Positions 10,371-51,995 of a stretch of 64,000 nucleotides of DNA are shown here, piece after piece. The DNA lies in contig OZ244999.1 in NCBI GenBank assembly GCA_965223265.1, positions 1,888,001 through 1,952,000 of the forward strand, given 5' to 3'. A model generated the notes under the pieces. It did no database searches, was not told the DNA's origin, and was given only the letters and a program-made list of their open reading frames with translations. Each line of letters starts with the position of its first letter. Position 1 is the stretch's first letter. Origin of the DNA: Planctomycetota bacterium (lineage in GTDB: Bacteria; Planctomycetota; UBA8108; SXIK01). Made by a program: the position numbers and the translations under genes.

Positions 10371-10377
10371 GAGCAGC

Positions 10378-10405
10378 ATTATGCGCATCTTGACGTGAAA
10401 GGCAA
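10378..10405 (-). promoter_or_regulatory. Possible sigma70-type promoter for the transposase (would give a leaderless mRNA)
   Basis: TTGCCT-16 nt-CATAAT on the minus strand, 7 nt before ATG 10370, with no SD sequence. Confidence 0.3.
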
Positions 10406-32900: not shown

Positions 32901-33765
32901 GATCTGGAAGACCTCCTGCACGGGGAGAGGTGAGAGCGCCGACTTCCACGTCGAACACGTTTTCATCCGCACGCGTCTCAACGCTCACGATCGAGCTCAA
33001 ATCGACATTGAGCACGCCACTCTCGTCGGGTCGAAGCACCCAAATCCACTGGCTCTCGGCATTCGTGACAATCAAGTTATCGCGGTCGCTTCCCGGGCGT
33101 CTGAAGGACTTCAGTGAGTAAACGGGCTTCGGGAAGTTTCCGTCCGTGGCGGCCAATTCTGGAATGGCGCTGACACGAACGAACTCGCCGCTTTCGTCTA
33201 GGCGATAGTGCTCCAGACCGAACGGCGGTCCCGCTGTAACCAGCTCCAGCTTCCCATCGCCGTCGAAGTCACCAGTTGCCAGGTTTCTTGCACCGGACCC
33301 GGTCTCTCCGATGAGTTCGCGGTGGAAGCGGCGCATCCCGTCGTTGATGAACAAGATGGCGGCCACTGCACTGAAGGGAGCCGCGACCGCGATGTCTGTG
33401 CGACCGTCACTATTGAGGTCGCCCATCAAAACTTGACGAAGGCCTCGGGCACCTGACTCAGGAGGAAACGCGACCAAATGCTGTGGATCCAGGAATCGGC
33501 CGTCTCCGGTATTGAAAAAAAGAGTTAACGTGCCGTCCAGGTTGCTGACAGCGAGATCGAAGGCTCCATCACCGTCGAGGTCGCCTGACGCAATGCTTTT
33601 CGGGCCTTCCCGTGGCGAGAAAATGTCTGGAGCTCCGGCGTCGAGTCGTTCGCCGAAGGCCTTGAGATTCTCGAAGAGCTGTGCTTCGAGTCGGCCAGAG
33701 GTCGCCGCAAGTAGGCATAGCAACACCGCAACTCGGCTCCCGCTTCGGCTCGCCGTAATCCCCAT
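29914..33765 (-). CDS. Secreted FG-GAP repeat + two lamin-tail domains + dockerin-like C-terminus
   Basis: Many D.N/DGDG..D repeats. LTD motifs INEILASN...EWVEVFN and ISEMVASN...DWVEVRN. C-terminal RGDADASGKLDLAD...DVNADGRTNVTD. Confidence 0.85.
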   Translation of the reverse strand: MGITASRSGSRVAVLLCLLAATSGRLEAQLFENLKAFGERLDAGAPDIFSPREGPKSIASGDLDGDGAFDLAVSNLDGTLTLFFNTGDGRFLDPQHLVAFPPESGARGLRQVLMGDLNSDGRTDIAVAAPFSAVAAILFINDGMRRFHRELIGETGSGARNLATGDFDGDGKLELVTAGPPFGLEHYRLDESGEFVRVSAIPELAATDGNFPKPVYSLKSFRRPGSDRDNLIVTNAESQWIWVLRPDESGVLNVDLSSIVSVETRADENVFDVEVGALTSPRAGGLPDLVTAHRNFGTVEIRRGTLSGEKLSFSAEPIQSIAVPGGPRDVEILDLNDDGWNDVVVVLRNLDRLISYENRQGTLTPTAEMPIGQSPREVAVGDFNRDGDVDLAVINRVSEDVSLLIGDPGSVGFSALDQFYLVDGEVAGLRVVDMNGDNRDDVVQLHRASGELTVRLATESGLLSPPVFYPMGSFPSAVRIIDVNGDGIADAVTANLGEKNSRGGLCVRLGRADGSLGPEVQFRLPENENGRLFALAAADFDGDSTVDIAAGFLDCRLGFFRGSGDGSFEFTREFEFVYEARDMVAADLDLDGDIDLAGASYSGDMVVVENRGDLMTGESLPRRIFSSPTEDKFGATEIEAEDLNGDGVLDLILGSGDGALVYSGGPSLLFTLTEDTAVSGSAAFPASSVAFGDFDGDGQNDFAIGCQILSCVTLLTRSDETGVFVPALTVDVPSGQHIATGDLDGDGQVDLIGSGDALWTALSSRRAEAASPRILEGNRSPIGAVTINEILASNDDFPVAPDEGRRSEWVEVFNASETAVNLAGWALVLERKNDGEIQRLGFAFPPAQLESRSHQLVFFSRAEERSEFHTGFRLPAEGAKLSLLAPDGTTADFVDYPEQETNVSYARYRDGLHSFVFNLFPSPGAENTDNGSVSPSLSLSAVGGEATGRRRGSYVAAMAGEPIRFYAKADDDIGIVSVSVLFRRIDVPSETRRIILFDDGRHADEEPQDGVFSGLLEPGLPAGASIRFLLEAVDLSDNVETLPDEDSGLVATEDTGDLFSMAVGDGLPLEISEMVASNTDGLVDEAGGTPDWVEVRNCGDQVLKLDGVFLGERFPVSDDWFWFPAGIELSPGEATVVFCDNNPDQGPLHAPFRLDKDRGQLMLGVTTNEGSPLVVDAVNYGPQTDDVAWARSGCGGSFSFRPPTPFAANVPQTVARGDADASGKLDLADAIASLNYLFRSGTIACAEAVDVNADGRTNVTDPIFLLLHLFASGDAPIGDVACR

Positions 33766-36114: not shown

Positions 36115-39100
36115 ATGAGATGCTGCCGTTTTTTTGCTACCGGACTTGTCGTCGCCGCTTTCTATTCTGCCGCTGCTCTTCATGTCGCGGCCGCGCCGCG
36201 CGGCGTTGGTGACGCCGCCGCTGAGCTCTTGGGGGCAACTGGAGTCGAGCGTGGAGTGTGCGCTGTGGTCGGAGTCGGAAGTCGTTGCGCTCGCGCGTCC
36301 GCCTTGGCGTTGGCGATCGCAGAAAGCAGTGAACTGTCCGTTCATGCGCGTCTTGCCGACCGCGCTGCCGTGTCCCCGCTCCGCGAACAGGCCCGGGCGC
36401 TCGGTTATGACTTGCGCCGGGTTGCAGTTGAAGGTGGACCGTGCGCCACGCTTCCGTATGCGACGGATCTTGTGGATCTCGTGGTCATTCCAGGTGTCGC
36501 CTCATCGGAGTTGGCCGCGCTGGATGCCGCCGAGATCCTGCGAGTGCTGCGCCCCGGAGGCTTTGCTCTGGTCGAATCGCAGGGCAACGGGGACGGTGCT
36601 TTGAACGTGGAAGCGCTACGTCGATGGGTGGACGGCATCGGCGCCACAGGTGTCGGGGTGCTCGAAGGCGTGAGCAACGGGCAGTGGGTCCGCTTCAGCA
36701 AGCCGGTGCCGGAGGGGCGAGACGATTGGAGCCACTGGGAGCACGGACCGGACAACAATCCGGTCTCCGCTGATCGCCTGATCAAAGCACCGTACATGAC
36801 GCAGTTTCTCGCCGAGCCGTTTTACATTCCGATCCCCTCGGTGACGACGGCTGCTGGCGGGCGCACGTTTCTTGCGATTGGGCATATCGCCCATCACCGC
36901 CGTGAGTGGGACATGCTCTATCAGCTCATCGCGCGAAACGGCTACAACGGGACGATTCTCTGGCAGCGCCAACTCCCTGAGGGTTATCTCGTGCATCGAT
37001 CTGCGTTTGTCGCGACCGACGACACGTTCTATATGATCGACGGCAGACACTGCCTCCAACTCGATCCACAGACCGGTGAGGAGCAGGGACGTATTCGGTT
37101 GCAGGGCGTCGCGGGGGAATGGAAATGGATGGCCAAAGTGGGGAACATTCTCTACGCGCTCGTCGGCAGCAAGGGACCAGGTACGCAAGTGATGCGAGGA
37201 GATCGTTCGTTCGGCGGTTGGAGCTGGGGCGACATGAGCCGTGGCTACTACGGCAAGCCTCGGATTCCATTTGGATTTGGGCGGAGCATCGCAGCGTATG
37301 ACCTCGACGCCGAACGAGTGATTTGGCACGAGCGCGAGGATGCCAACATCGACTCTCGCACGATGGCAATTCGCGACGGCAAGCTCTTCTATTTCTGTCC
37401 GGAAGCGCACCTCCGCGCCCGTGATGTTGCATCGGGGTCTGTTGTTTGGACCAACGACGATCAAGCCGTCCTGAACCTTATCGAGGAGCCTGGGAAGAAG
37501 CTCACTTCGACGCCTGGGTTTCGTACCGCGTGCATAGCCGTGGCGACTCCCGACGCGCTGATTCTTCAAGGTCAGACGCGAATGAACGTTGTTGCTGTTT
37601 CGACCCAGGACGGGAAGCTTCTGTGGAAGAAACCGAAGATCACGAACAATCCCAACGCTATTTTTGTCGACGACAACGTGATTCTTGCGGTCGGACCAGA
37701 AGCAAGCCACGTGGTCGTCGAGCCGAAAAGCGGCGACGTGCTCGCGAACCTCGGTTTCAAAAAGGTTGCATGCACCCGCCTCACCGCTAGCATGGATTCC
37801 TTCTTCTGTCGTGGCGAAGGAATGCTGCGATTCGATCGCTACTTCGGCAAGGTGTTGGTTGACGGTGCAGCGCGTCCCGCGTGTAACGATGGAGCGATGC
37901 CCGCAAATGGCCTTCTCTACTTGGGCCCGTGGCAGTGCGACTGCAATCTGTCGTTGATCGGCAACGTCGCCAAGTGTTCCGCTGGAGATTTTAAATTCGA
38001 CTACGTGGCCAGTGATCAGGAGCGTCTGGAACGATCGAACGGCGCAGGTGAGGTTGCCGAATTTCCTGTCTCACCGAGCGATTGGCCGACTTATCGTGGT
38101 GGCAGCCACCGCGGCGCACGCTCGGCGGCTTCTATTGCGGCTTCGGCAGAGCAATCGAAGTGGACCTATCAGGGAGAAATCGCGCATCGCCCGAGTGTCG
38201 CAGCGGCGGCCAATGGATCGCTTTTTTTCGCAGGTGACGACGGCGTCGTCCGGTCTCTCGATGCGGCGAGCGGCCGCGTCCTCTGGGAGTTTGCCACTGG
38301 TGGGCCGGTGAAGTATCCACCGACGATCGCGGCGGGTCGAGCGTTCTTCGGCAGTGGCGACGGGTACGCGTACGCTTTAGAGGCCAGCAGCGGAAAACTC
38401 CTGTGGCGATTTCGTGCTGCACCTATTGAGCGCCATATTATGGTCTATGGGACTCTCGGCTCGACGTGGCCAGTGCACAGCGGCGTCCTGGTACATGGTG
38501 GCGTGTGTTACTTCGCGGCCGGGATCATTGATCAAGACGGTACGTATGTCTACGCTCTCGACGCTGCGAGCGGAAAGGTGAAGTGGCAGAACAATTCGTC
38601 CGGGCATCTCAACAAGCAGTTGCGTAAGGGCGTCAGTGTGCAGGGGAATCTGACTCTCTCCGGCGATCGTCTACTTTTGGCGGGCGGCAACCAAGTTTCT
38701 CCGGCGCCGTATGACCTCGGCAGCGGTCGATGTTTGGCGAAGAGTTTTGAACAAGGACGGCCCAAGGCGAACAATGGAAATTTCCTTGGCATACTGCGCG
38801 GTGAAACCGCGATTGTCGGCGGACGCGTCCTTTATTCAGCGCCGCAGAATGTGTCAACCAAAGGGAGCTTCGAGCTCACATCGCCGACGAGGAAAATGCG
38901 GTTGAACTACGGGGGCGTGGCGCCGGCGTGGAATAGCGACGTCGTGGCGATGGTTAATTTTAAATACGGTAAGCTCATGGCGTGCGACATCGGGTCGGTC
39001 GTGAAGAGTTTCGAGTCCGGCGATCTTGGAGGAGCCCGGACCATTGCAGAAGCTCTCGCGCGCGACGGCGAGGTCCTTTGGCAGTCGGACCTCGGTCGCG

Positions 39101-39345
39101 CGGAGAAGTTCGAGGTGCTGTCACTTGCGATGTCGGCGAATGCCGTCGTTGCCGTCGCTCAGTACCAACATCCTCACCGCGCTCACCCCCAATGGACCGT
39201 CGTCGCCTATGACCTGAAGAACGGCGAGGAACTCTCTCGCGTGAGGCTCGACCAAGAACCACTTCCTGGCGGACTTTTGATCGACCGAGATGGCAGAATT
39301 GTCGTCAGCCTCATCGATGGAGGCATGATCTGTTGGGGAGCTTGA
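36115..39345 (+). CDS. Methyltransferase-like + PQQ/BamB-type beta-propeller repeat protein
   Basis: LPYATDLVD...RVLRPGG, DDWSHWEHGPDNN, and repeated ALDA.SG..LW blades. This architecture is typical of planctomycetes. Confidence 0.82.
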   Translation: MRCCRFFATGLVVAAFYSAAALHVAAAPRGVGDAAAELLGATGVERGVCAVVGVGSRCARASALALAIAESSELSVHARLADRAAVSPLREQARALGYDLRRVAVEGGPCATLPYATDLVDLVVIPGVASSELAALDAAEILRVLRPGGFALVESQGNGDGALNVEALRRWVDGIGATGVGVLEGVSNGQWVRFSKPVPEGRDDWSHWEHGPDNNPVSADRLIKAPYMTQFLAEPFYIPIPSVTTAAGGRTFLAIGHIAHHRREWDMLYQLIARNGYNGTILWQRQLPEGYLVHRSAFVATDDTFYMIDGRHCLQLDPQTGEEQGRIRLQGVAGEWKWMAKVGNILYALVGSKGPGTQVMRGDRSFGGWSWGDMSRGYYGKPRIPFGFGRSIAAYDLDAERVIWHEREDANIDSRTMAIRDGKLFYFCPEAHLRARDVASGSVVWTNDDQAVLNLIEEPGKKLTSTPGFRTACIAVATPDALILQGQTRMNVVAVSTQDGKLLWKKPKITNNPNAIFVDDNVILAVGPEASHVVVEPKSGDVLANLGFKKVACTRLTASMDSFFCRGEGMLRFDRYFGKVLVDGAARPACNDGAMPANGLLYLGPWQCDCNLSLIGNVAKCSAGDFKFDYVASDQERLERSNGAGEVAEFPVSPSDWPTYRGGSHRGARSAASIAASAEQSKWTYQGEIAHRPSVAAAANGSLFFAGDDGVVRSLDAASGRVLWEFATGGPVKYPPTIAAGRAFFGSGDGYAYALEASSGKLLWRFRAAPIERHIMVYGTLGSTWPVHSGVLVHGGVCYFAAGIIDQDGTYVYALDAASGKVKWQNNSSGHLNKQLRKGVSVQGNLTLSGDRLLLAGGNQVSPAPYDLGSGRCLAKSFEQGRPKANNGNFLGILRGETAIVGGRVLYSAPQNVSTKGSFELTSPTRKMRLNYGGVAPAWNSDVVAMVNFKYGKLMACDIGSVVKSFESGDLGGARTIAEALARDGEVLWQSDLGRAEKFEVLSLAMSANAVVAVAQYQHPHRAHPQWTVVAYDLKNGEELSRVRLDQEPLPGGLLIDRDGRIVVSLIDGGMICWGA

Positions 39346-39406: not shown

Positions 39407-42400
39407 TCACGCGTCGCACGGCAGGAACGCCTGGCATGTGAGCGTATCTGCCGTGACGTCGAAGTCGCAATTCTCGGCAGGCTGCGGGAGAGGCGAGCCG
39501 CCGGCGAAGAGGCGGAGCAGAATCGTGACGGCGTCGGTGACGGTGATTTTGCCGTCGTCATTGGCGTCCGCGGCTTTAACACAGCTTGGCTCAGTGCCGC
39601 GCCTGAAGAGAAATCCGAGAATTGAAAGCGGGTCCGCGACGTCCAGCTGGGCGTCGGCGTTCGCATCGCCGCGGCGAAATGCGACGTCCCCGCGTGGATC
39701 GATTTCGCCACGCTCGAAACTCGTCACCGACGGCGTGCCGATGACATCAAAGCTCTCGTCGAGATAGAGAACACTTGCCTCCTTGACTACTGGGGGAGGA
39801 CCGCCTTCGAACTCGCGGTCCGGAACCCCAATCTCTATCACTCGGACCGGTTTCTCGAGGCTCGGAAGAACGAGCATCGGCTCTAGCACGACCCAGTACT
39901 TGACCTCGACGTTGTGTCGACGCGCACTGTAGGCAAGACGCCAGTAGTCGGTTTCCGTTCGAACTTCACCTTCCAGCTCGACTCGGGCACGAGTGAGGCT
40001 TGCAGGACCGGTCTCCGTAAGACTCTCCGCCTCGAGGAATCGTTCCTCCAGGTGGATGACCGAACCGTCGTCGAGGCCGATGTCCATAGCGAACAGTGGC
40101 AACAGTTCGTAGCGGCATGAAGAGTAGCTGGCGACAGGCACGTCATTGAGGGAGCCAATCATCGACAGTTCGGACGTGAGGTACTCTTCGTCAAGCGCGC
40201 GCTGTCTCTGGAGTGGGACGCCCCCGCGGCTTTTGAAGTTGACATCGAAAATCTCGAGCTTGAGGGAGTCTCCGTTCGGAAGCACGAACGATTGCTCGAA
40301 ATCGAAGCGGTAGGTGACGTCGCTGCCGGTAGCCCCAAGTCGGCGAACTCGAAACAGGCCGTCGTCGAGTGGATCCGCGAGGAGCTGTTCGGGACCAAAA
40401 CGCACTTCGTCAAAGAGCTCTCCGGAGAAAGAGTCGCTACCGGTTGGTAGTTCCAAAATACCTGGTTTGAACTGAGCAACGCTCTTGAGCTCATACTCGA
40501 CACGCGGGCCGCGGCCGAGTCGCTCTCCGGAGAACACCGCGCAAGCCGAAGTTCCTTCTTCGATCGCTAATTCGAATGTCGGAGACTGGGGTACGGTGCT
40601 CGGCACCAGGAACGGTCGCACCTGTTTTACGGCGAGCGACCCATCACTTTCGATCTTGAACTCAAAATCCAGCAGCACTTCCTCGCGGTCATGGCCTTCG
40701 AGGTCGAGCGGTAGGTTCGCATCGACGTGCGCCATGAGTGCGCCTAACTCTCGCAGCTGATCATCCGTCATCACTGTCTCTCCCGGGGCAACAAGAGAGG
40801 AACTTCGTTCGCGAATGATTCGAGCAACTTGGCCGGACTCGATTTCGAGCAGGTTGCGTTCGACTGTGGTTCCTGGCTCTGGGCTGACGACACTCGCCTC
40901 ACCAACCTGTGCCGTGATCACATAGCGCTTGTCTGCCGTGTTTCGTGGACTACCGGTGAAAGCAACGCCGTTGACCGCTTCGTCAAGGAAGGCGCGGTTG
41001 ACCAGGATTCCCATCGCGATCGAGTCAGCGGGGACCTGAAAGAACGTTCGCTCCTCGTGGGCCCGAAACGTCCACAGACTGGTCCATACCTTCTTCAATG
41101 CCCTCTCGATCGTTCGTTCGTTCGTCCGCTGAGAGTCGCAGTGCGAGCTGTCGGGGCTAGAGGGGTCGATCGTGTCTTCAGCGCAGACGGACGTCGATTC
41201 ATAAAGCCCCGCGCCGCTGAACTCGAGTGTATCTTCGAGGTTCGAAGAAGATCGAAACCTCACCATGGTTCGAGTGCCCCCGAACACTTCTGAGATCCGC
41301 GCGATCAGTTGCGCGACGAGGTCCGGATCCACGATTCCTTCGCTACGAGCGCGATCGCGAAACTGATCGAGCGCTACGAATCGCTGCTCAGAGTCGCTCT
41401 GGAAATCGTCGTTGGCGATCAGCTCTTCGATGTAGTCACGATATGTGACTTCACGACCGTCGACGGTCAGGGTGTTCGCTTCCATGAACTCGAGGTAGTA
41501 GCGAACAGGAATGGCGAAACCGGCTTCCTGGTACTGCACGAACGGACCCGTCAGTTGGCGCTGCAGGCGCGCTAAGTTGGTCGCTTTGCCGCCGAACCTG
41601 GCGACTGGCGTAAACGTTTCGGTGGCGAGTAGATCCATCTCGTGAAATTGGTCGAGGCCGCCGTACGCCACGTCGAGCGTCGGAGTGGTCGGTAGAGACG
41701 GCCGGCTACTACTCCAGAATTCTTGAGCTTCTTCGATCGTTGCCGCGTCTACGAAGTACTGGTCGGCCAAGACCTGCAAGCGGACGAGCTGACCGGCCCA
41801 AGGGGTGAAGGCCTCGCGAGCATCGCGCACGAATGCGTTGGGCGTCCCGCGTCTTGCTGTACGTACGGCGACATGGCTCAAACTGCCTTGGATCGCGCCG
41901 GTGATGACGCCGCCGACGACGCCTTCTATGTCTCGAGGTGCCTCATCCACGACGATCACATCCTGAAACGTCAATCGCCCGCTATCGCTCGCCTCTTCGA
42001 ATTCGGCCAGCGTCAGCAGGCGCACTCGACCGTAGCCAACCGCGATGGTGTACGGCTCATAGTCGATGCCTGGGTCTCCACTCTCGAACAGAATGTCGAA
42101 GGGTGGGTTTGTCCACTCCTCCGCACGTCGGCGTGCGAGGTCGCCCTCGGGTTGGTATACGAGCGGTCGCAGGTCGAACGACTGCTGCAGAGTGTCATAA
42201 ACCGCTTGAACCTCTTCAAGCAGGAGCAGCTCTTGCACATCAAAGCCGGTGTCTGCGACCACTGAAAAGGCGTAGACGATGCCGTTTGGCGTTTCAGTCC
42301 GCAAAATCGCTCCAATGTAATAGTCGCGTGTGGCACGACGTCCGACGAGTGTGTCGAAGAAGTCCCGATCGTCCGGCAGCGTCGGAAACATCTCCGGAAA

Positions 42401-44863
42401 GACGCCCCCCAGAAATTCTTCGTGGAGGCGCCAGCGGTTGATGTTCTGAAAGTGTGTCGGTAGTAGGTTCGGGTCGTCGCGCACTGGGACGATATACTTC
42501 GTCGCACGCAAGGCAGAACCGGATGACTGCAGAGGAAGAGAGATTCGAAAGAAATCCGCCGCGGTGCACACGTCTGTGAGCGCATCGGCTGCGAAGGGCG
42601 CCACGTCCAGGGCATTGCGCACAACCGAGACGGTTCCCGTCAATCGATTCGCGATGGCTAAGTCGATGCTGCCGTTGCCGTCCAGGTCGCCGCTGCTGCC
42701 GAATCGCGGCTCGCTTTCGACTTGGATCTCGATCGGCGCTCCGAAGGTGCGATCTGGTCGTGTGATGAGGAGCGCCACGGTGCCTCCGTTCACGCTCATG
42801 CCGATGACATCGGGGCGTCCATCACCGCTGATGTCATCGGTTACCAAGGAATAGATCGGCAAGCCGTTTGCGGGTGCGTTCGTCTCGTCCCACTGCCCAC
42901 CGCCGTTATTCCACAGCACCGCGATCGAGCGTCCCGATTCGCTTCCCGTGGCAAGATCGACGCGTCCGTCTTGATCGAAGTCATTGGCGACGATGAAATT
43001 CGGGCGCTCCGTGACGAACACGCTAACCGGAGGTCGAAACACTCCCGGCGACGCCTGCTCGAGCAGCGTCACTTCTCCGGATCCGATCCCGGCCGTCGCG
43101 ATGTCCAGGTCTCCGTCGTGATCGAAATCGACGACGACACTGGCGCGAGGGATGCTCCCGACACGCAGCTCCTGTTCGCGAACGAAAGTGCCGTCGCGCT
43201 GATTCCGTAGCACAGTTACCGTGCTCACGGTTGGATTCGATGTTACGAGCTCCGGATATCCGTCGTCGTCGAGGTCGCCGCTCGTGATGTGAAATGCCCC
43301 CGAGCCGACGTCGTAAGTTGGGCCGAGTGCGAATGCACCCTGACCGTCGTTGAGCAGCAGGCCAGCGATGCTGAAACGAGGATCCACCACAGCCATGTCG
43401 AGATCGGAGTCTGCGTCGATGTCCACGAGCCTCAAGTTGAACGACGCCAAGTGGGACTCGACGTGCGTTGGGCCCGTGAACGTACCGTCGCCGTTGTTCA
43501 TGAACACCGAATAACCGACGGGCGAATTCATTCGATTGTTGCCCGTCACGATATCGATGTCACCGTCGCCGTCGAGGTCGCCAGAGCTCTCTGAGTGAGG
43601 GAAACCATCGACGATCAGTCGTTCTGGTGGGTGGAACGGGATGAAGTTCCGCTCCGCGCGCTCGTCGTTCCAGAGAAGCGTGGCTGTCTCGTTCCCAACC
43701 ACCGTGAGCGTTAGCTCTTTGTCACCGTCGCCGTCGAGGTCGAAGGCGCCAGCAGCGGCCGGCCGCCGTCCGAGATTCAGTGCGCTGATATCGAACGTAC
43801 CACTGTCAGTCCCGCGAAACACGACAGTCCCTTGTGGATTGCTCACAACGGCGATCAAATCGCTGTGCCCATCGCCTGCGAGATCTGAAGTCAGCAGCTG
43901 GTCCGGCGCAAAGCTGACGCGAAGCTGACGAGATTCAAGCGCTCCGGTTTGGCTTTGTAACAGGACGTCGATTCCATCGCGGTAGCCGACGGCGAGGTCC
44001 GCACGGCCGTCACCATTGAAGTCTCCAGCCGCCAGGTGTTCAGGCCTTTCCCGATTCAGGGGCAGCCGCTCTGCAACTGCGAAGGCGCCATCGCCATCGC
44101 CGCGTAGTATCGAGAGGTCAGAAGAGTCGCGGTTTGCCGTGACGACATCCAAAGCTCCGTCGCCGTCGAGGTCGGCTACGACAACCGCGGCTGGGTACTC
44201 GCCAACAGCATACTCACGGAGCGACGGCTGCACGCCATTCTCCCCTGTGTGCAAGGCGACCGTGACGTTGTCGCCAACACGGTTGGCGACGACCAGGTCG
44301 CTCGCAGAGTCGTTCGAGAACTGGCCGACGGCGAGCGCCTGCAGTCCGTTCGCCAGCGGCGTGCCTTCCGGCACTGCAAAAGTACCCGCACCATCGCCGT
44401 AGAGGATTACAAAGCGCGAAGGTTGGAGCGCGGCCAAGTCGGAGCTGCCATCGCCGTTGAAGTCGCCGACACACCAAGCCTTGGTACGTCCCTCCAGCAG
44501 AGTCCGCGACGTCGAAAACTGTGTTTCTGGTCCAGATTCAGGGCCTGTCGCGTCCCGGAGGGCTAACGTGACGCCGTCGACGTTTCCTGCCGCAATGTCC
44601 GCCAAACCGTCGCCGTTGAAGTCGGCGCTCGTCACGGAATGGGAGCTCAGTCCGACACCTAGCAGCGTTCGGGTCCGGAGCGCAAGAGGCGCGGCTTCGC
44701 ACTCATCTGGGATGAGGTTGTCATTGCAATCGAGACTTGCACCCGACGCTGTTTCGTCGGCATCTGTCAGGCCGCTGAAATTGCAGTCTGCTGCGTCGAT
44801 GCCACCGCCGAAAAAGAGCACCAACGACGCAGGTAAGAGAAGAAATAGCCCGAAGCGATTCAT
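39407..44863 (-). CDS. Secreted FG-GAP repeat / phospho-His / PPDK-type ATP-grasp / dockerin-like protein
   Basis: Signal peptide, DCN..PDEC repeat, about 12 FG-GAP repeats, LSHVAVRTARRGTPNA, FGGKATNLA, RFRSSSNLED..FSGAGLYES, DFEFK..KQVRP, C-terminal FRRGDANAD. Confidence 0.85.
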   Translation of the reverse strand: MNRFGLFLLLPASLVLFFGGGIDAADCNFSGLTDADETASGASLDCNDNLIPDECEAAPLALRTRTLLGVGLSSHSVTSADFNGDGLADIAAGNVDGVTLALRDATGPESGPETQFSTSRTLLEGRTKAWCVGDFNGDGSSDLAALQPSRFVILYGDGAGTFAVPEGTPLANGLQALAVGQFSNDSASDLVVANRVGDNVTVALHTGENGVQPSLREYAVGEYPAAVVVADLDGDGALDVVTANRDSSDLSILRGDGDGAFAVAERLPLNRERPEHLAAGDFNGDGRADLAVGYRDGIDVLLQSQTGALESRQLRVSFAPDQLLTSDLAGDGHSDLIAVVSNPQGTVVFRGTDSGTFDISALNLGRRPAAAGAFDLDGDGDKELTLTVVGNETATLLWNDERAERNFIPFHPPERLIVDGFPHSESSGDLDGDGDIDIVTGNNRMNSPVGYSVFMNNGDGTFTGPTHVESHLASFNLRLVDIDADSDLDMAVVDPRFSIAGLLLNDGQGAFALGPTYDVGSGAFHITSGDLDDDGYPELVTSNPTVSTVTVLRNQRDGTFVREQELRVGSIPRASVVVDFDHDGDLDIATAGIGSGEVTLLEQASPGVFRPPVSVFVTERPNFIVANDFDQDGRVDLATGSESGRSIAVLWNNGGGQWDETNAPANGLPIYSLVTDDISGDGRPDVIGMSVNGGTVALLITRPDRTFGAPIEIQVESEPRFGSSGDLDGNGSIDLAIANRLTGTVSVVRNALDVAPFAADALTDVCTAADFFRISLPLQSSGSALRATKYIVPVRDDPNLLPTHFQNINRWRLHEEFLGGVFPEMFPTLPDDRDFFDTLVGRRATRDYYIGAILRTETPNGIVYAFSVVADTGFDVQELLLLEEVQAVYDTLQQSFDLRPLVYQPEGDLARRRAEEWTNPPFDILFESGDPGIDYEPYTIAVGYGRVRLLTLAEFEEASDSGRLTFQDVIVVDEAPRDIEGVVGGVITGAIQGSLSHVAVRTARRGTPNAFVRDAREAFTPWAGQLVRLQVLADQYFVDAATIEEAQEFWSSSRPSLPTTPTLDVAYGGLDQFHEMDLLATETFTPVARFGGKATNLARLQRQLTGPFVQYQEAGFAIPVRYYLEFMEANTLTVDGREVTYRDYIEELIANDDFQSDSEQRFVALDQFRDRARSEGIVDPDLVAQLIARISEVFGGTRTMVRFRSSSNLEDTLEFSGAGLYESTSVCAEDTIDPSSPDSSHCDSQRTNERTIERALKKVWTSLWTFRAHEERTFFQVPADSIAMGILVNRAFLDEAVNGVAFTGSPRNTADKRYVITAQVGEASVVSPEPGTTVERNLLEIESGQVARIIRERSSSLVAPGETVMTDDQLRELGALMAHVDANLPLDLEGHDREEVLLDFEFKIESDGSLAVKQVRPFLVPSTVPQSPTFELAIEEGTSACAVFSGERLGRGPRVEYELKSVAQFKPGILELPTGSDSFSGELFDEVRFGPEQLLADPLDDGLFRVRRLGATGSDVTYRFDFEQSFVLPNGDSLKLEIFDVNFKSRGGVPLQRQRALDEEYLTSELSMIGSLNDVPVASYSSCRYELLPLFAMDIGLDDGSVIHLEERFLEAESLTETGPASLTRARVELEGEVRTETDYWRLAYSARRHNVEVKYWVVLEPMLVLPSLEKPVRVIEIGVPDREFEGGPPPVVKEASVLYLDESFDVIGTPSVTSFERGEIDPRGDVAFRRGDANADAQLDVADPLSILGFLFRRGTEPSCVKAADANDDGKITVTDAVTILLRLFAGGSPLPQPAENCDFDVTADTLTCQAFLPCDA

Positions 44864-45351: not shown

Positions 45352-46923
45352 ATGCCACGCGTAGCCTGTTTTCTGGCCCTTCTCTTGCCTGTCCTGGCTG
45401 TGTTGTCAGCGGCTGAACCGATCGGCGAAGTGCTCACCGAACCTGTTGACCCAGCCGAGGTGAGGACGACATGGCGCAATCTTGCCAACGAGCAGGTGAT
45501 CTATCCGCTCAGTATGAGCGACGTTCCGGTGCGGCTTGACTCTTCGCACCAACTTTTTCTCGATAATTACCTCATCGCCGAGTCTGACAAAGTCACACGA
45601 CAAGTTCACGAACCGACGCGACATCCAAACAACCCGATCTTCAAGGCGTCTCCCGCCCAGTTCAACCATGCCGTCGTCCAGCACGTGCTCAAGTTTGAGG
45701 CGGCTCCAAGGTTTCGTATGTGGTACTGGTCGTGGGACAACTGGCAGACGCTCCCGAGTGGCCAACGAATTCGGCACGCCTCAAGCTACGCCGTAAGCGA
45801 TGACGGCGTCCATTGGATCAGGCCAGAGCTTGGACTCCACGAGGTGGAGGGATTGCAGGGACCGAACAATGTCGTTGTGCCCTATGGCATGATTCAAGGC
45901 GTTTTCTATCACCCGCAGGCAAGCGATCCCGACCAGCGCTTTAAGGCTCTCGTCTGTGTTGAGAGGAAGAATCCCGTGGTGCGCGAGGGTTACTATTTGC
46001 ACACGTCACCGGACGGGATCCGCTGGCGAGGTGATCTCTCGCACCCGGTGCTTCCCAGCCTCCTCAGCACCTACTACTTGCCACAAGGTGGGGTCGGCGA
46101 TACCTCGCGTTTTTGGTGGGATCCCGTGCGGCGTAAGTATGTGGGTGACATCAAATTCGTCATCTACGGCACCGAGCGTGCTCGCGGCACGATCGAGAGC
46201 GATGATTTGGTTCACTGGTCGCGGGCGACGCCGACGTTCCTCGCGCGCCGCAGTGACGAGACACAGATTTACGGACATCGCGGCTTCAACTACCAGGGGA
46301 TGTACATCGGGATGCGGTGGATTTTCGTTCCCGCCCGCAGTCAACGTCATTCGACGTACGTTGAGCTCGACTGCAGCCGCGATGGCAGGATCTGGACTCG
46401 CGTCGGCGCTGGCCAACCGTTCATGAGCTTCCGCGACCAACACGACACTTGGGATGCGTCGATCGTACGACCTGTCGCGATGCTCGAGGTCGGTGACGAA
46501 GTCTGGGTCTACTATTTCGGTGCACCGACTGAGTTGGAGTCGCGTCACCCGAATCTGCCGGCGCACCATAAAACTGATTACGCTCTGGGGTTGGCTACGC
46601 TACGGCGTGATCGATTCGTCTCCATCAACGCTAGCGATGACGTCGGTCTTTTGATCACGCGCCCACTCAATTTCACAGGTGACAGATTGCGAGTGAACGC
46701 CGTTGTCCACGAGGGCGGCAGCATCCGGGTGGGTGTGGTGGATCGAGACGGTCGACCGATGGCGGGCTACGAATCGGGGAGGTGCACACCGCTCGGCGGC
46801 GATGAGATTGATGTCCCGGTATCGTGGGCTGAAACGGACACGCTGGGCGGACTGCAAAATTCCGGCGTGCGTCTTCGGTTTGAAATGCGGCGAGCGCAGC
46901 TGTTTTCCTTCTGGATCGACTGA
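45352..46923 (+). CDS. Secreted five-bladed propeller glycoside hydrolase-like protein (GH32/43 clan-like)
   Basis: Signal peptide, QLFLDNYLI, Asp-box repeats SDDGVHW / SPDGIRW / SDDLVHW / SRDGRIW, and LRRDRFVS. Confidence 0.7.
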   Translation: MPRVACFLALLLPVLAVLSAAEPIGEVLTEPVDPAEVRTTWRNLANEQVIYPLSMSDVPVRLDSSHQLFLDNYLIAESDKVTRQVHEPTRHPNNPIFKASPAQFNHAVVQHVLKFEAAPRFRMWYWSWDNWQTLPSGQRIRHASSYAVSDDGVHWIRPELGLHEVEGLQGPNNVVVPYGMIQGVFYHPQASDPDQRFKALVCVERKNPVVREGYYLHTSPDGIRWRGDLSHPVLPSLLSTYYLPQGGVGDTSRFWWDPVRRKYVGDIKFVIYGTERARGTIESDDLVHWSRATPTFLARRSDETQIYGHRGFNYQGMYIGMRWIFVPARSQRHSTYVELDCSRDGRIWTRVGAGQPFMSFRDQHDTWDASIVRPVAMLEVGDEVWVYYFGAPTELESRHPNLPAHHKTDYALGLATLRRDRFVSINASDDVGLLITRPLNFTGDRLRVNAVVHEGGSIRVGVVDRDGRPMAGYESGRCTPLGGDEIDVPVSWAETDTLGGLQNSGVRLRFEMRRAQLFSFWID

Positions 46924-46955: not shown

Positions 46956-47933
46956 CTACGCGTGATCGCATCCGAAGAGGTTAACGCTGAACATCCTATC
47001 GTCGTCCGTCCAGGAGGTTTCGATTCGCAGATCGGCGGCGGCGGCTAGATTCTCGATGTCGTCGCGGGAGTACTTGTAGGAATTCTCCGTGTGGATCGAT
47101 TCGCCTCGCTCGAACTCCACGTCCATGCCAAGCTCTTCGATGCGGATCGTTTGATCTGTCTTGCTGACGAGATGCATTTCGATGCGGCTACGTTGTGATT
47201 CGAATCTTGCGTGGTGGTGAAAGCGATCCAAATCAAAATCGCCGTCGAGCTCGCGATTGATGCGTGACAGAAGGTTCTTGTTGAAACGGGCTGTAACACC
47301 TTCGTCGTCGTTGTACGCTTGTTCGAGCTTTTCGGTGCTCTTGTGGAGATCGATTCCGACGAGAAGCTTGTCTTGGGGCTTCATCGCAGATCTCACGCGA
47401 CACAGGAACTCCTCGGCGTGCGATGGTTCAAAGTTGCCGATGCTCGAGCCGAGCCAAGCGATGAGTCGTTGAGGGTGATCGCGCATTCTGTCGAGGAGGT
47501 TCACAACGCACTCGTAGGTGCCGACAGTCGACGCGATGCTGAGCTGTGGGTAGTCAGTTGCGAGGTCATGTGTGCTTTCTTCGACCGCTGCTGCAGAGAT
47601 GTCCAGAGGGCAGTAGAGAAAGGACTTCCGGAGTGCAAGGAACGCATCCAGTAGAACACGCGTCTTGCGGCTGCTGCCGCTTCCGAGCTCAACCAAACTC
47701 GTGCAAGCCGGAAGCTGCGCGGCGACGTCTTCGCAGCAGCTGCGAAGAATCTCGGTTTCTTTTCGCGTCAGGTAGTAGGAATCGAGCGAGCAAATCTCTT
47801 CAAACAACTCGGAACCATGGTCGTCATAGAAGTATTTGAACGGCAACGTCTTTTCCGGACGACTCAACCCTGCTTGCACATCTTTTGCGAAGTCATCATT
47901 CTGCACTTGCGTGCGCTGATCTAGGATGGACAC
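46956..47933 (-). CDS. egtD: L-histidine N-alpha-methyltransferase
   Basis: KTLPFKYFYD..GSELFEEI..L.SYYLTRKE, ELGSGSS.KT, LGSSIGNF, AYNDDEGVTARFN, HTENSYKY. Likely start GTG 47933. Confidence 0.93.
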   Translation of the reverse strand: MSILDQRTQVQNDDFAKDVQAGLSRPEKTLPFKYFYDDHGSELFEEICSLDSYYLTRKETEILRSCCEDVAAQLPACTSLVELGSGSSRKTRVLLDAFLALRKSFLYCPLDISAAAVEESTHDLATDYPQLSIASTVGTYECVVNLLDRMRDHPQRLIAWLGSSIGNFEPSHAEEFLCRVRSAMKPQDKLLVGIDLHKSTEKLEQAYNDDEGVTARFNKNLLSRINRELDGDFDLDRFHHHARFESQRSRIEMHLVSKTDQTIRIEELGMDVEFERGESIHTENSYKYSRDDIENLAAAADLRIETSWTDDDRMFSVNLFGCDHA

Positions 47934-48303
47934 GGTCCGTTCCCTGTCCGTACAGATGCCTCTTCCGATGTTCGTATCGTTTGGCACGTCTCTTCCTTTC
48001 GCTACTGAGAAGCTTCTTGGTGTACATGATGAGAGCAGCCGCATCAACCGTCACGGTTTAGAGACCGTCGACTTGCGTCCATGCGCGGTTCGCTATGCAG
48101 TGATCGTCAGTCGTACCCCGTGCGAGCGCCGCTCGTACATGACTTGCTCGACACGCGCATAGCAATGAAGACCGTACTGTGGTACGGTGTTGCGACACTT
48201 CACGAACCGTGCGGTTCCGAGATTCCCGTGTGTGTCTACGCGGGCGCACCGTGTTCCGTGCGCATCCGCGTTCATCGTACTCTCCGCGCTGGAGCGACGA
48301 AGG

Positions 48304-49077
48304 TTGAGGCCGACGGATTCGATTCTTGAATTGAGAGGTGTTTCGAAATCGTTCGGTGAGACGACCGTTTTGCATGGCGTTGATCTCGACGTTTTCGCTC
48401 AAACGACGACGGCACTCATCGGGCCGAGTGGTTCCGGCAAATCGACTCTGCTGCGGCTCATGAACGGCCTTTTGAGTCCCGATCTTGGCGAGGTGCGCTT
48501 TGATTCGCAGCTCGTCGACTCCAGTCCCGCGCTCGAACTACGTCGACGCATGGGCTACGTCATCCAAGATGGGGGGCTTTTTCCACATTTGACGGCGAGC
48601 CGCAATGTGACGCTACTCGCTCGTCATCTTCGCTGGTCTGAGAAGCGCATCGAAGGACGCCTCGACGAGCTCGTCGATTTGACGCATTTTCCACGCGATG
48701 GACTCGACCGTTATCCCTCGGAGCTCTCGGGCGGGCAACGCCAGCGCGTCGGGTTGATGAGGGCACTGATGCTGAACCCCGACGTCCTACTTCTCGATGA
48801 ACCGCTCGGTGCGCTTGATCCGTTGATTCGTTCGGAGTTGCAAGAGGAGTTGCGACAGATTTTCGTGACGCTTGGAAAGACCGTCGTGATCGTCACTCAC
48901 GACCTGGCGGAGGCCGCTTTTTTTGCCGATCGCTTGGCGCTTTGCAACCACGGTCGGATCGTGCAGATCGGTTCGTACTCTGAGCTCGTGAACGAGCCAG
49001 CCGAGGCGTTCGTAACACGATTCGTCCAGGCGCAGCGGGCATTGACCGCTGGTTCTTCCTCTGGAGACGCCCCATGA
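48304..49077 (+). CDS. Quaternary-amine (Opu/ProV/OsmV-type) ABC transporter ATPase
   Basis: GPSGSGKS, GYVIQDGGLFPH, LSGGQRQR, LLLDEP. Start is uncertain (TTG 48304). Confidence 0.9.
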   Translation: MRPTDSILELRGVSKSFGETTVLHGVDLDVFAQTTTALIGPSGSGKSTLLRLMNGLLSPDLGEVRFDSQLVDSSPALELRRRMGYVIQDGGLFPHLTASRNVTLLARHLRWSEKRIEGRLDELVDLTHFPRDGLDRYPSELSGGQRQRVGLMRALMLNPDVLLLDEPLGALDPLIRSELQEELRQIFVTLGKTVVIVTHDLAEAAFFADRLALCNHGRIVQIGSYSELVNEPAEAFVTRFVQAQRALTAGSSSGDAP

Positions 49078-50579
49078 CGCATCGCAGGCGTTTTCGACTT
49101 TCCGTTGCTTTCGTCGTGGCAGCGTTCGTGCCGTCGTTGTCTGCCGGTGAGGAACCGATCGTCGTCGGATCGAAGAAGTTCACGGAGTCGGTCGTGCTCG
49201 GCGAGATGCTGCTTCAGGTCGGTCGTTCCACCGGGGGGAGCATCGTCCATCAAAGGGAGTTCGGCGGCACGCGCATCCTCTGGAATGCTCTTGTCCGCGG
49301 CGATATCGACGCATACCCCGAGTATAGCGGAACGCTCTTGCGAGAGATCCTGGCCTCCCACAACGTCGAATCTATGGACGAGGCAAGGCCAGTTTTGGAG
49401 AGCTATGGGATTCGAACCAGCGGCGCTCTCGGTTTTAACAACACTTATGCGATCGGCGTCTTGCGCGAAATTGCGAAAAGTCGTTCGTTGAGCAGGGTCT
49501 CCGATCTGAGGGCCCACTCCGACCTAAGATTCGCCTTCAGCAACGAGTTCATGGAGCGGCAGGATGGATGGGACGCACTGCGTCAACGCTACTCCTTACC
49601 CCAAACGGATGTGAGGGGGATGGACCATGATTTGGCCTACCGCGGCCTTCTCTCAAAGGCAGTTGATGCCACGGACTTCTATGCGACGGATGCCGAGATT
49701 TCGCATCATTCGCTCATGGTCTTAGACGACGACCTGAAGCACTTTCCGCGTTACGACGCTCTTATCCTCTTTCGAGCTGACCTCGAGACAAGGGCGCCAA
49801 AGGTCGTGGCGGCAATGCGCCGACTCGAGGGGCGCATCGATGCCGTAGTGATGACGAACTTGAACCGTGAAGTGAAGTTTGGCGGTGCATCTGAAGCTGA
49901 AGTCGCTGCCGGGTTTCTTCGCGAAGCGCTGAGTCTGTCGATCGTCGTCGACAACGAAACGAGGGCCACTCGGCTTCTCAGGCACAGCCGCGAGCATTTG
50001 ACGCTGGTCGGCGTGTCCCTTCTGGTTGCTGTGTTGATCGCCGTTCCACTGGGCATCGTCGCGGCGAAGAGACCATGGCTCGGACAATTCGTTTTGGCGG
50101 CGACGGGAATTCTTCAGACGATTCCGTCGCTTGCGCTGCTCGTGTTTATGATTCCACTTCTTGGTATCGGCAAACCTGCTGCTGTTGCCGCCCTCTTCTT
50201 TTACAGCCTGCTGCCGATTGTTAGGAATACACACGCTGGCCTTTGTGGGATTCGCCCGGATTTGCGCGAGTCGGCAGAGGCGGTCGGGTTGCCACCTCGC
50301 GCGCGGTTATTTCAGATCGAGCTCCCACTTGCGTCCCCTTCGATCCTTGCGGGAATCAAGACCGCAGCCGTGATTAACGTCGGCACAGCGACGTTGGGCG
50401 CGTTGATTGGTGCCGGAGGACTCGGATCGCCCATTCTTACGGGGATTCGACTCGATGACTATGGGCTCATTCTTCAGGGGGCGATTCCTGCTGCTGGTCT
50501 CGCCGTCGCGATACAAGTGGCTTTCGATGTCGCCGAAAGATTCTTAGTCCCACGTGGTCTGAGGTTGCAACGTCAATGA
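49074..50579 (+). CDS. Fused substrate-binding protein + permease, betaine/ergothioneine-type ABC transporter
   Basis: VGSKKFTE, IDAYPEYSGT, LGFNNTYA, then permease QTIPSLAL and TATLGALIGAGGLG. Confidence 0.9.
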   Translation: MTHRRRFRLSVAFVVAAFVPSLSAGEEPIVVGSKKFTESVVLGEMLLQVGRSTGGSIVHQREFGGTRILWNALVRGDIDAYPEYSGTLLREILASHNVESMDEARPVLESYGIRTSGALGFNNTYAIGVLREIAKSRSLSRVSDLRAHSDLRFAFSNEFMERQDGWDALRQRYSLPQTDVRGMDHDLAYRGLLSKAVDATDFYATDAEISHHSLMVLDDDLKHFPRYDALILFRADLETRAPKVVAAMRRLEGRIDAVVMTNLNREVKFGGASEAEVAAGFLREALSLSIVVDNETRATRLLRHSREHLTLVGVSLLVAVLIAVPLGIVAAKRPWLGQFVLAATGILQTIPSLALLVFMIPLLGIGKPAAVAALFFYSLLPIVRNTHAGLCGIRPDLRESAEAVGLPPRARLFQIELPLASPSILAGIKTAAVINVGTATLGALIGAGGLGSPILTGIRLDDYGLILQGAIPAAGLAVAIQVAFDVAERFLVPRGLRLQRQ

Positions 50580-50642
50580 TGCGCGCCTCGAGCTGCGGGC
50601 GGAGAGTCTTGCACCTGCAGGTTGAAAGTACGGAGTGATCAC

Positions 50643-51995
50643 ATGTCGAAGTCCTTGCACGGCTGCGCCGAAGCCACCGCGGGTGCGGAGCAAGTGAAAG
50701 ACGAAATGCTGGCTCGGTATCACGCGACACGCGTCGCCACGGAAGAGTTGTGTCGGGGGCTTGAAGTCGAAGACATGGTTTGTCAAACGATGGCCGATGT
50801 CAGCCCGACGAAATGGCACTTGGCGCACACGACGTGGTTCTTTGAGACGTTTATCCTCGTGCGGCTGGATTCCGGATACGAAGTCTACGACCGCCGCTAT
50901 CGCGATCTCTTCAATTCCTACTACAACAGCGTTGGCCAGCAGTTCGATCGACCGAAACGAGGCTACCTGTCGAGGCCTACGGTGCGAGAGATCATGGACT
51001 TTCGCGCCCACGTCGACGCGGCGATCGAGCGTCTGCTGGAAAACGGAAGCCAGGCCAGAGTGCCAGAGTTTCTCAAGCTGGTTGAGATCGGCATCCACCA
51101 CGAGCAACAGCATCAAGAGCTCATACTGACAGACCTAAAGCATGTATTCGCCTCCAATCCGCTCTTGCCGATCTTTCGATCTGAGTCACGCTCATCGATG
51201 TGTGAAGCGGAGCCGCTCGGGTGGCACGAGTATGAAGGAGGGGTTCGGGCGATCGGAGAAAGCGGCGATGGTTTCTCGTTCGACAATGAGCGACCACGCC
51301 ATGAGGTCCTTTTGCAGCCGTTTCGACTGGCCTCGCGGCTCGTTACCTGCGGCGAGTACTTGGAGTTCATCGAGGCTGGCGGCTATGACAGTCCCGAGTT
51401 TTGGCTTTCCGACGGCTGGGAGATCATCCGAGCACGGTCGTGGAGTGCGCCGCTCTACTGGCGAAGAATCGACGCGACATGGTATGAGTTTACATTGACG
51501 GGAATGCGCCCCGTCCGCGCAGCCGAGCCGGTGTGCCATGTGAGCTTTTACGAAGCCGACGCCTACGCTCGCTGGAAAGGTCTGCGACTACCCAGCGAGG
51601 AAGAGTGGGAAGTGGCCGCTGCCGATGTGGGAGTCGACGGTAATTTTGTCGACTCGGAGCGATTCCACCCGAGGCCGAGTGAATTCTCCGGCGCGGCGGA
51701 CGTCCGTCCGCGACAGATGTTCGGGGACGTCTGGGAATGGACTTCAAGTCCTTACCTCGCGTACCCTGGCTACGCGCGGCCGGTGGGAGCGTTGGGTGAG
51801 TACAACGCGAAATTCATGTCGAATCGTTTCGTCTTGCGGGGCGGCTCTTGTGCGACGCCGCGCAATCACATGCGTGCGACGTACCGAAACTTTTTCGCCC
51901 CGGACGCGAGGTGGCAATTCATGGGCATTCGCCTGGCCGACTCACTGTTGGTCGCGAACGGGAGAGCGTCCACATCTTCCGCGACGCACAACTGA
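50643..51995 (+). CDS. egtB: Ergothioneine sulfoxide synthase (DinB + FGE domains)
   Basis: SPTKWHLAHTTWFFE, FNSYY, HEQQHQE iron ligands, DNERP, GDVWEW, EYNAKFM. ATG 50643 with GGAG SD. Confidence 0.92.
   Translation: MSKSLHGCAEATAGAEQVKDEMLARYHATRVATEELCRGLEVEDMVCQTMADVSPTKWHLAHTTWFFETFILVRLDSGYEVYDRRYRDLFNSYYNSVGQQFDRPKRGYLSRPTVREIMDFRAHVDAAIERLLENGSQARVPEFLKLVEIGIHHEQQHQELILTDLKHVFASNPLLPIFRSESRSSMCEAEPLGWHEYEGGVRAIGESGDGFSFDNERPRHEVLLQPFRLASRLVTCGEYLEFIEAGGYDSPEFWLSDGWEIIRARSWSAPLYWRRIDATWYEFTLTGMRPVRAAEPVCHVSFYEADAYARWKGLRLPSEEEWEVAAADVGVDGNFVDSERFHPRPSEFSGAADVRPRQMFGDVWEWTSSPYLAYPGYARPVGALGEYNAKFMSNRFVLRGGSCATPRNHMRATYRNFFAPDARWQFMGIRLADSLLVANGRASTSSATHN

Follow-up and report, generated by a model that had tools for sequence, protein, structure and literature searches.

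A putative exported dikinase of a Planctomycetota bacterium arranged as in glucan,water dikinases

Among described enzymes, the plant and algal starch dikinases glucan,water dikinase (GWD) and phosphoglucan,water dikinase (PWD) are among the closest to the gene product considered here. Potato GWD1 (StGWD1) is built from two CBM45 modules, a central domain (residues 483-926), a His domain (931-1050) and an ATP-binding domain (1069-1387); its catalytic H992 is residue 62 of the His domain, and GWD is reported to pass phosphate to water as well (PMC13553574, in the excerpt used here). GWD has been treated as a marker of starch-making eukaryotes (preprint 10.64898/2026.09.25.754361, likewise in excerpt). 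We analyzed a 64,000-nucleotide stretch of DNA from a Planctomycetota bacterium (contig OZ244999.1 of assembly GCA_965223265.1, positions 1,888,001 to 1,952,000; hereafter the window), in which the open reading frame (ORF) at 39407-44863 on the minus strand, the longest in that part of the window, encodes a protein of 1818 amino acids (aa). This protein may be a Sec-exported, calcium-binding, multi-domain His-swivel dikinase arranged as in the glucan,water dikinases, a reading that we hold with about as much belief as doubt. Our literature search for FG-GAP or exported dikinase proteins found no paper describing this family, and its members currently carry names such as hypothetical, FG-GAP-like/VCBS repeat-containing or PEP/pyruvate-binding domain-containing protein.

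Domain order and catalytic residues

From the N to the C terminus, the protein comprises a signal-like start, 14 FG-GAP blades, a region that we call the N-domain, a His domain, an ATP-grasp domain, a C-domain and a dockerin-like tail (Table 1). The borders within residues 770-1818 were set from conservation and from the shortest relatives, with a linker between the His domain and the ATP-grasp. A preliminary description of the locus had located the ORF, the codon of His997 and a set of motifs (GVIT at residue 985, SLSHVAVRTAR at 994-1004, GGKA at 1091, RSSSNLED at 1204 and FSGAGLYES at 1215), and all of these were recovered at the same places. Pfam assigned PPDK_N to residues 1089-1420 (E=1.8e-17), and H997 lies N-terminal to this match. 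Thus, the His domain precedes the ATP-grasp, as the preliminary description had it, and this domain order is that of GWD. The same description had noted the lack of a pyruvate-binding barrel; indeed, PEP-utilizers_C, the PEP/pyruvate barrel, gave no Pfam match in the window protein at E<=0.1.

In PPDK and PEP synthase, ATP and Mg are bound by GGK, RSS, ExE-type and QxR residues. The same motifs align when the family profile is compared with the solved PEP synthase 8a8e (E=7.6e-12), and hhalign pairs the ATP-grasp with that of Escherichia coli PpsA at a probability of 84% (E=7.4e-6). Judging from these profile matches, the ATP-grasp is homologous to that of PEP synthase. NCBIfam models gave only weak N-terminal matches to the window protein, namely, to PEP synthase (35.6 bits; cut-off, 598), PigC, RedH and rifampin phosphotransferase (RPH). 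When 219 family proteins between 650 and 2000 aa long are aligned, the putative phospho-carrier H997 is kept in 211/216 proteins, K1093 and R1204 each in 215/219, E1401 in 213/215, Q1414 in 213/216 and R1416 in 214/216. The preliminary description had made its proposal depend on conservation of the His and ATP-grasp residues across the family; the counts run from 211/216 to 215/219.

To characterize the His domain, we relied on Pfam scans of relatives. Among 48 family members scanned at E<=10, PPDK_N was matched in 48, GWD1_pHisD (PF22973) in 22 and PEP-utilizers in one; all 22 GWD1_pHisD matches lie below the gathering score, the best with E 5.5e-4. In a second scan, GWD1_pHisD was matched at E<=0.5 in 13 of 28 members, always just upstream of PPDK_N. 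Their scores of 11-16 bits stay below the gathering score of 27, and 12 of the 13 matches place the conserved His at about position 61-64 of the 115-position profile. This weak but consistent sequence evidence suggests that the His domain is closer to the GWD type than to the PEP-utilizer type, and the sub-threshold matches in relatives lend weak support to a specific kinship with GWD.

The N-domain, of ~165 aa, is present in every form of the family, including minimal ones of ~700 aa, and keeps K789 in 204/212, H814 in 210/212 and R846 in 212/214 proteins. By a crude measure of hydrophobic periodicity, it looks mixed alpha/beta; on the same crude scale, 191 windows of the C-domain are beta-like and 90 are alpha-like. 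No internal repeat was found in the C-domain, and a search for it outside family contexts, among shorter proteins, gave only 5 family fragments. Neither the N-domain nor the C-domain matched E. coli PpsA, and they did not match each other.

The FG-GAP propellers and dockerin-like tail of the preliminary description were also recovered. FG-GAP_3 is matched in 10 stretches (E=1e-58) and FG-GAP with E=4.5e-28, and the best solved-structure match of the region is the FG-GAP part of the secreted esterase 8w20 (E=5.6e-11). Because the region holds 14 calcium-loop motifs spaced 46-54 aa apart, it probably forms two seven-bladed propellers. At the other end of the protein, Dockerin_1 matches residues 1732-1780 below the gathering score (E=0.015 and 0.0064; 15.9-17.1 bits against 22.9). 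Two loops of the D-x-[ND]-x-D type are visible in this sequence, Dockerin_1 was matched in 29 of the 48 relatives scanned (best E 4.9e-7), and the family profile of the tail matches solved dockerins with E values of about 1e-6 to 2e-3. In the C-terminal tail, C1799, C1810 and C1816 are conserved together with C1761.

Export marks, relatives and paralogues

The only hydrophobic 19-mer of the window protein lies within residues 1-25 and is preceded by an Arg, as expected for a signal peptide on heuristic grounds. Of 205 family proteins starting with Met, 174 carry an N-terminal hydrophobic 10-mer (149 with a stricter filter), and 19 have a lipobox-like motif after the hydrophobic segment. Domains of extracellular type recur as partners of the family core: in 31 relatives, we found Lcl_C (6), Dockerin_1 (6), LTD (4) and one each of CHAT, BNR_2 and FG-GAP, and one of the 31 joins CHB_HEX_C_1, Fn3_assoc, beta-helix, LTD, fn3 and TSP3; in 24 further relatives, FG-GAP (12), LTD (5), Dockerin_1 (4) and Lcl_C (1) were found. 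Furthermore, C1227 and C1242 are both Cys in 215/216 proteins, and C1441 and C1583 co-vary, with both being Cys in 189 proteins, neither in 6 and only one in 4. Judging from this conservation, the pairs 1227/1242 and 1441/1583 may form disulfides. Together, the N-terminal signals, extracellular-type fusions and Cys pairs support export of the window protein, in line with the Sec signal reported in the preliminary description. Tat export of a folded, pre-charged enzyme was considered and rejected, since a loose RR motif precedes the hydrophobic segment in just 12 of the 205 relatives.

A search with residues 780-1720 among proteins of similar length yielded 295 homologues at E<=1e-3, with a listing of the best 120. 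When cluster representatives (clusters at 50% identity) were searched exhaustively, 2532 matched at E<=1e-3, of which 1911 pass 1e-10 and 818 pass 1e-30. When one genome per species was scanned, at least 575 pattern matches were obtained, at least 567 of which encode a relative; 79 of these loci were kept for the analysis of gene neighbourhoods. Of the 78 rows in a tree of the His and ATP-grasp part, 29 are labelled Planctomycetota, 19 Myxococcota, 4 Omnitrophota, 3 Verrucomicrobiota, 2 Chloroflexota and 1 Kiritimatiellota; 7 come from Pseudomonadota-labelled bins, and 13 are unlabelled. The window protein belongs to a clade with good support that comprises 31 rows, including 24 from Planctomycetota.

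The long forms with FG-GAP repeats are mostly planctomycetal, forms of about 1060-1100 aa are devoid of propellers, and forms of about 700-800 aa, mostly myxobacterial, end directly after the ATP-grasp. Given that the shortest forms end there, the minimal unit of the family consists of the N-domain, His domain and ATP-grasp. The cultured myxobacterium Paraliomyxa miuraensis encodes one such minimal form, a 748-aa protein with an N-terminal lipobox (L064, positions 5677-7923). In one Planctomycetota bin, two short-form genes stand in tandem (L032, 5791-9102 and 11597-14938). In a Sumerlaeia bin, the family gene has two in-frame stops in its N-domain part (L036, 6001-6483) and is either a pseudogene or the product of an assembly frameshift.

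At least 28 copies of the family, the window protein included, were counted on the 9,179,496-bp contig of the window among the best 120 of the 295 homologues; each was seen on a contig of this length, which is taken here as one contig. All 28 keep every catalytic residue (H997, K1093, R1204, E1401, Q1414 and R1416), seven Cys and a signal-like start with the DCN...DCN...PDEC motif. Mean pairwise identity among the paralogues is highest in the ATP-grasp (0.61) and the His domain (0.58), followed by the tail (0.51), the N-domain (0.46) and the C-domain (0.41), and lowest in the FG-GAP region (0.31). Some copies are mosaic: P0018 and P0020 share 99.2% identity from residue 775 through the C terminus and 34.7% in the propellers, and P0009, P0010 and P0012 share 98% identity in the enzyme half versus 38-41% in the propellers; the change-over falls between residues 700 and 800. 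Such mosaics suggest recombination or gene conversion among the copies, by which either the enzyme half would be kept uniform or the propeller halves would be swapped. When a tree of 213 cores is rooted at its midpoint, the paralogues fall into 11 paralogue-only clades, the largest of which has 11 members and includes the window protein; given this split, the expansion of the 28 is partly old and partly recent. A second copy begins at position 61096, so that the window holds two paralogues within 16 kb of each other. The upstream regions of these two share no common motif.

Among proteins of 3183-5000 aa, 20 match residues about 931-1428, that is, the His domain and ATP-grasp, at 30-32% identity. 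The His and the ATP-site residues are kept in 20/20 of these giant relatives, the Cys loop 1227-1242 is missing from 20/20, and BLAST detected the N-domain in none of the 20. By eye, 18 of them have a signal-like N terminus, and a precomputed Pfam list gives a GSDH (glucose/sorbosone dehydrogenase) propeller in 16, alongside LRR, Ig-like, fn3, SWM and cadherin-like modules in the group. Soluble GSDH-type enzymes are periplasmic sugar oxidisers, and the partners GSDH, Lcl_C, CHB_HEX_C_1 and BNR_2 are the only pointer in these sequences to carbohydrate acceptors. The giant relatives appear to be part of a wider exported superfamily sharing the His domain and ATP-grasp. PPDK_N ranks within the 20 most frequent domains of giant proteins from Omnitrophota (preprint 10.1101/2023.11.21.568195, in excerpt). 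Within the window, a stand-alone GSDH gene lies 7.4 kb from the dikinase gene, which may be a coincidence.

The dikinase gene in the window

The dikinase gene is flanked by a convergent gene for a PQQ-propeller protein and, 488 bp beyond its other end, by a divergent 523-aa ORF without family matches (Table 1). It thus looks monocistronic. Rfam gave nothing near the gene, and a scan for promoters and terminators found sites no more frequent than in shuffled sequences.

Table 1. Positions of the dikinase domains and of other features in the window
Feature	Position	Strand	Basis or remark
Signal-peptide-like N terminus (residues 1-24)	44792..44863	-	hydrophobic 19-mer after Arg; heuristic
Cys-rich DCN...DCN...PDEC motif (residues 26-56), adjoins signal	44696..44788	-	family consensus and paralogue N termini
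FG-GAP/VCBS region, 14 blades (residues 60-765)	42569..44686	-	Pfam FG-GAP_3; calcium-loop spacing
N-domain (residues 770-935), directly before His domain; candidate acceptor site	42059..42556	-	conservation, minimal forms
Putative phospho-His (swivel-type) domain (residues 936-1050)	41714..42058	-	H997 conservation; sub-threshold GWD1_pHisD in relatives
Codon CAT of His997, putative phospho-carrier	41873..41875	-	His in 28/28 paralogues
ATP-grasp nucleotide-binding domain (residues 1086-1425)	40589..41608	-	PPDK_N; solved PEP synthase match; conserved residues
Cys1227-Cys1242 loop inside ATP-grasp	41138..41185	-	both Cys in 215/216; insertion relative to PpsA
Family-specific C-domain (residues 1428-1722), probably beta-rich	39698..40582	-	shorter-protein search; crude periodicity
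Dockerin type I-like module, two calcium loops (residues 1728-1792)	39488..39682	-	Dockerin_1 below gathering score; family profile
Cys-rich C-terminal tail (residues 1793-1818)	39410..39487	-	conserved Cys
Second paralogue, runs off window end	61096..63999	+	968 aa, 100% identical to first 968 aa of P0040 (1804 aa)
PQQ-propeller gene	36115..39345		convergent
523-aa ORF	45352..46923		divergent
Stand-alone GSDH gene	52298..53911	-	
1283-aa FG-GAP protein	29914..33765	-	lamin tail domain, choice-of-anchor X motif
EgtD-like histidine methyltransferase	46956..48047	-	
Betaine-type ABC transporter	48187..50579		
EgtB-like protein	50622..51995	+	DinB_2 and FGE-sulfatase
PSCyt1/PSCyt2/PSD1 protein, then DUF1501 protein	1988..6751		Laminin_G_3 insert in the former
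Second DUF1501 gene	59502..60890		
Group II intron	6791..10726		Rfam
Group II intron D1-D4	6791..6931		Rfam
Group II intron domain V/VI	10578..10726		Rfam
Reverse transcriptase/maturase ORF	7269..8576	+	inside the intron
DDE transposase ORF	8625..10388		inside the intron
Multihaem cytochrome c protein	13905..16763	-	Cytochrome_C7 and c3 matches (both proteins)
Glutamyl-tRNA reductase gene	17018..18436		
Multihaem cytochrome c protein	21151..23004	-	

Elsewhere in the window, a 1283-aa FG-GAP protein carries a lamin tail domain (LTD) and a choice-of-anchor X motif and is devoid of a dikinase module; LTD also partners the dikinase core in relatives. The stretch from the EgtD-like to the EgtB-like gene (46956-51995), with the betaine-type ABC transporter genes between them, resembles an ergothioneine cluster that has a transporter of its own. 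The PSCyt1/PSCyt2/PSD1 and DUF1501 proteins form a classic planctomycete pair, and a second DUF1501 gene is present. The group II intron, which contains the reverse transcriptase/maturase ORF, is apparently interrupted by the DDE transposase ORF on the opposite strand. The glutamyl-tRNA reductase gene lies between the genes of two large multihaem cytochrome c proteins.

Mechanism, alternatives and comparison with known systems

If the window protein is an exported dikinase of the GWD layout, its ATP-grasp would bind a nucleoside triphosphate with Mg, as family chemistry suggests, and His997 would take the beta-phosphate there, with release of AMP and phosphate. The His domain would then swing to the K789/H814/R846 site of the N-domain, following the swivel model for GWD1 (PMC13553574, excerpt), and the phosphate would be handed to an extracytoplasmic acceptor bound at the N-domain, for which a glycan or other surface polymer is the likeliest candidate. 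Choice of the target would fall to the FG-GAP propellers and the C-domain, the dockerin-like tail would anchor the enzyme to a partner, and the at least 28 paralogues would keep the chemistry and vary the targeting parts. Taken together, the sequences suggest a new exported variant of the His-swivel dikinases.

In a wider form of this reading, which we consider rather doubtful, bacteria of several phyla would run nucleotide-driven phosphorylation outside the cytoplasmic membrane, with dikinases loosening insoluble or surface polymers so that these can be degraded or remodelled, as GWD does for starch, and propellers choosing the targets. Such a system would imply a usable pool of nucleoside triphosphate in the periplasm or at the cell surface, and the His-then-ATP-grasp module might then also be the prokaryotic relative that gave rise to the eukaryotic starch dikinases. 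About 150 kb of a single 9.18-Mb contig is given to this family. The combination of export marks with a fully conserved ATP-dependent phospho-relay makes energy-requiring chemistry outside the bacterial cytoplasm directly testable, and the 748-aa lipoprotein form of the cultured myxobacterium is a convenient entry point. Moreover, the family would offer a bacterial point of comparison for the starch dikinases, which are described only for eukaryotes in the excerpted preprint (10.64898/2026.09.25.754361).

Several observations weigh against an exported dikinase of the GWD type. The export marks are sequence heuristics throughout, and because the signals are of the Sec or lipoprotein type, the enzyme cannot be exported folded and pre-charged; we know of no ATP supply outside the cytoplasm. 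The window protein itself has no GWD1_pHisD or PEP-utilizers match at E<=10, none of 13 giant relatives has either at E<=1, and the profile of the His domain found nothing significant among solved structures. When a 39-sequence alignment of the His domain was compared by hhalign with the whole of E. coli PpsA, residues 379-462 were picked (E=0.0099), and H997 was placed on the His of this stretch, which we take to be the catalytic His, with a probability of only 4% (5% with 215 rows). An acceptor-binding module was not recognized either: the N-domain has no Pfam match, and its profile found nothing at E<0.19 among solved chains; the profile of the C-domain matched no solved structure; and the Pfam scan of the window protein at E<=0.1 contained no carbohydrate-binding module. 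His997 is replaced by Asn, Pro, Arg, Leu or Glu in 5 of the 216 aligned proteins (P0026, P0028, P0134, P0191 and P0222), which may be catalytically dead copies; P0222 has no PPDK_N match at E<=1e-4 either. Finally, when 541 ORFs from the 79 loci were clustered, no neighbour recurred in more than 7 loci except antisense ORFs, and the families recurring in up to 7 are unrelated housekeeping types. Thus, of the likeness to GWD and PWD put forward in the preliminary description, the domain order holds (PMC13553574, excerpt), and the kinship is supported only weakly by the 22 of 48 sub-threshold matches; the window protein itself gives no GWD1_pHisD match and shows no starch-binding module.

The problem of the phosphoryl donor would be solved if the protein were a delivered effector or toxin, brought to another cell by its adhesion modules to act inside it, where it would drain the victim's ATP to AMP and phosphate or phosphorylate a vital molecule. 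Myxococcota and Omnitrophota, lineages known as predators or epibionts, contribute 19 and 4 of the 78 tree rows, and the presence of the family module on giant surface proteins fits such a role, as does the transfer of phosphate to water reported for GWD (PMC13553574, excerpt). However, Pfam and NCBIfam scans of the window protein recognized no translocation domain, none of the 79 loci revealed a conserved immunity-type neighbour, and the minimal forms resemble plain lipoproteins. In addition, the enzyme half is conserved and the N-terminal half variable, the reverse of the arrangement in polymorphic toxins; there was no family match in the phage collection, and the plasmid collection gave only ppsA-like ATP-grasp matches. 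We therefore consider an effector unlikely. A scavenger or sensor of extracellular nucleotides seems to us quite unlikely too. In that case, water would be the sole acceptor and outside ATP would be converted to AMP and two phosphates, or the protein would report ATP released by lysis. The intact ATP site and His, the failure to recognize an acceptor-binding module and the lack of conserved partner genes agree with this, but the near-invariant K789, H814 and R846 of the N-domain argue for a second substrate site, a single small and common substrate would hardly account for 28 paralogues with diversified propellers, and simpler secreted phosphatases and nucleotidases exist.

The protein could also be an exported phosphotransferase for small molecules, acting on an antibiotic to inactivate it or on a metabolite to modify it outside the cell, as RPH does inside the cell. 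The profile of the ATP-grasp matches the solved RPH chains 5hv2 and 5hv3 (E about 1e-4; 5HV3 is identified as rifampin phosphotransferase in the excerpt of PMC13553574), and the weak NCBIfam matches to PigC, RedH and RPH point the same way. Nevertheless, we regard this as very unlikely: the domain order is unlike that of RPH, the score for the RIF_Ptrans_rph model is 15.3 bits (cut-off, 999), large adhesion modules and a dockerin are better suited to a polymer or surface than to a diffusible drug, and the ATP problem remains. That problem would vanish if the enzyme part were cytoplasmic and used cytoplasmic ATP, the hydrophobic N terminus being an uncleaved anchor or no signal at all. ATP-dependent chemistry normally needs the cytoplasm, and signal prediction here is only heuristic; yet the single N-terminal hydrophobic segment with its preceding Arg, the 14 calcium-loop FG-GAP blades and the dockerin, the conserved and co-varying Cys pairs, the lipoboxes of relatives and the extracellular-type fusion partners make a cytoplasmic location highly improbable.

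An analogy, although not homology, is offered by the CotH kinase modules of cellulosomes, where an ATP-dependent kinase is likewise part of secreted dockerin proteins with no known outside source of ATP. Cellulosomal examples from C. thermocellum are Cthe_0044 (CotH) and Cthe_0239 (LTD, LTD, Fn3, CotH) (PMC6083626, in excerpt). LTD, Fn3-type and dockerin partners occur in the window family as well. However, CotH has a protein-kinase-like fold rather than an ATP-grasp with a phospho-His, and the analogy explains nothing mechanistically here. RPH shares with the window protein the three-part His-swivel organization without a PEP barrel and the transfer of phosphate onto a non-metabolic acceptor; to our knowledge, it has no signal peptide or adhesion modules. 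Its domain order is unlike that of GWD1 (PMC13553574, excerpt), with the ATP domain first and the His domain last according to the preliminary description. With PpsA and PPDK, the window protein has in common the homologous PPDK_N ATP-grasp, in which the ATP/Mg motifs align, and a His in register with the His-domain stretch of PpsA, at non-significant similarity. It differs from them in the reversed domain order and the lack of the PEP-utilizers_C barrel, and its family has the extra Cys loop in the ATP-grasp and the export marks.

GWD1 and PWD have the same order, from an acceptor-side domain through the His domain to a C-terminal ATP domain of the PPDK_N type, and a His domain of comparable length in which the His sits near position 62 (PMC13553574, excerpt). 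The weak GWD1_pHisD matches in relatives are consistent in position, and the PEP/pyruvate barrel is absent in both. Unlike these enzymes, the window protein has no CBM45-type modules and carries FG-GAP propellers, a C-domain and a dockerin instead; its domain before the His domain has ~165 aa and looks mixed alpha/beta by the crude measure, as opposed to the 440-aa helical central domain of GWD1. All GWD1_pHisD matches in relatives fall short of the gathering score, and there is none in the window protein. Moreover, the window protein is bacterial and bears a signal, whereas GWD works where ATP is made. By domain order and model scores, we conclude that the window protein is not a PEP synthase, PPDK or RPH; it is GWD-like in layout and probably in chemistry.

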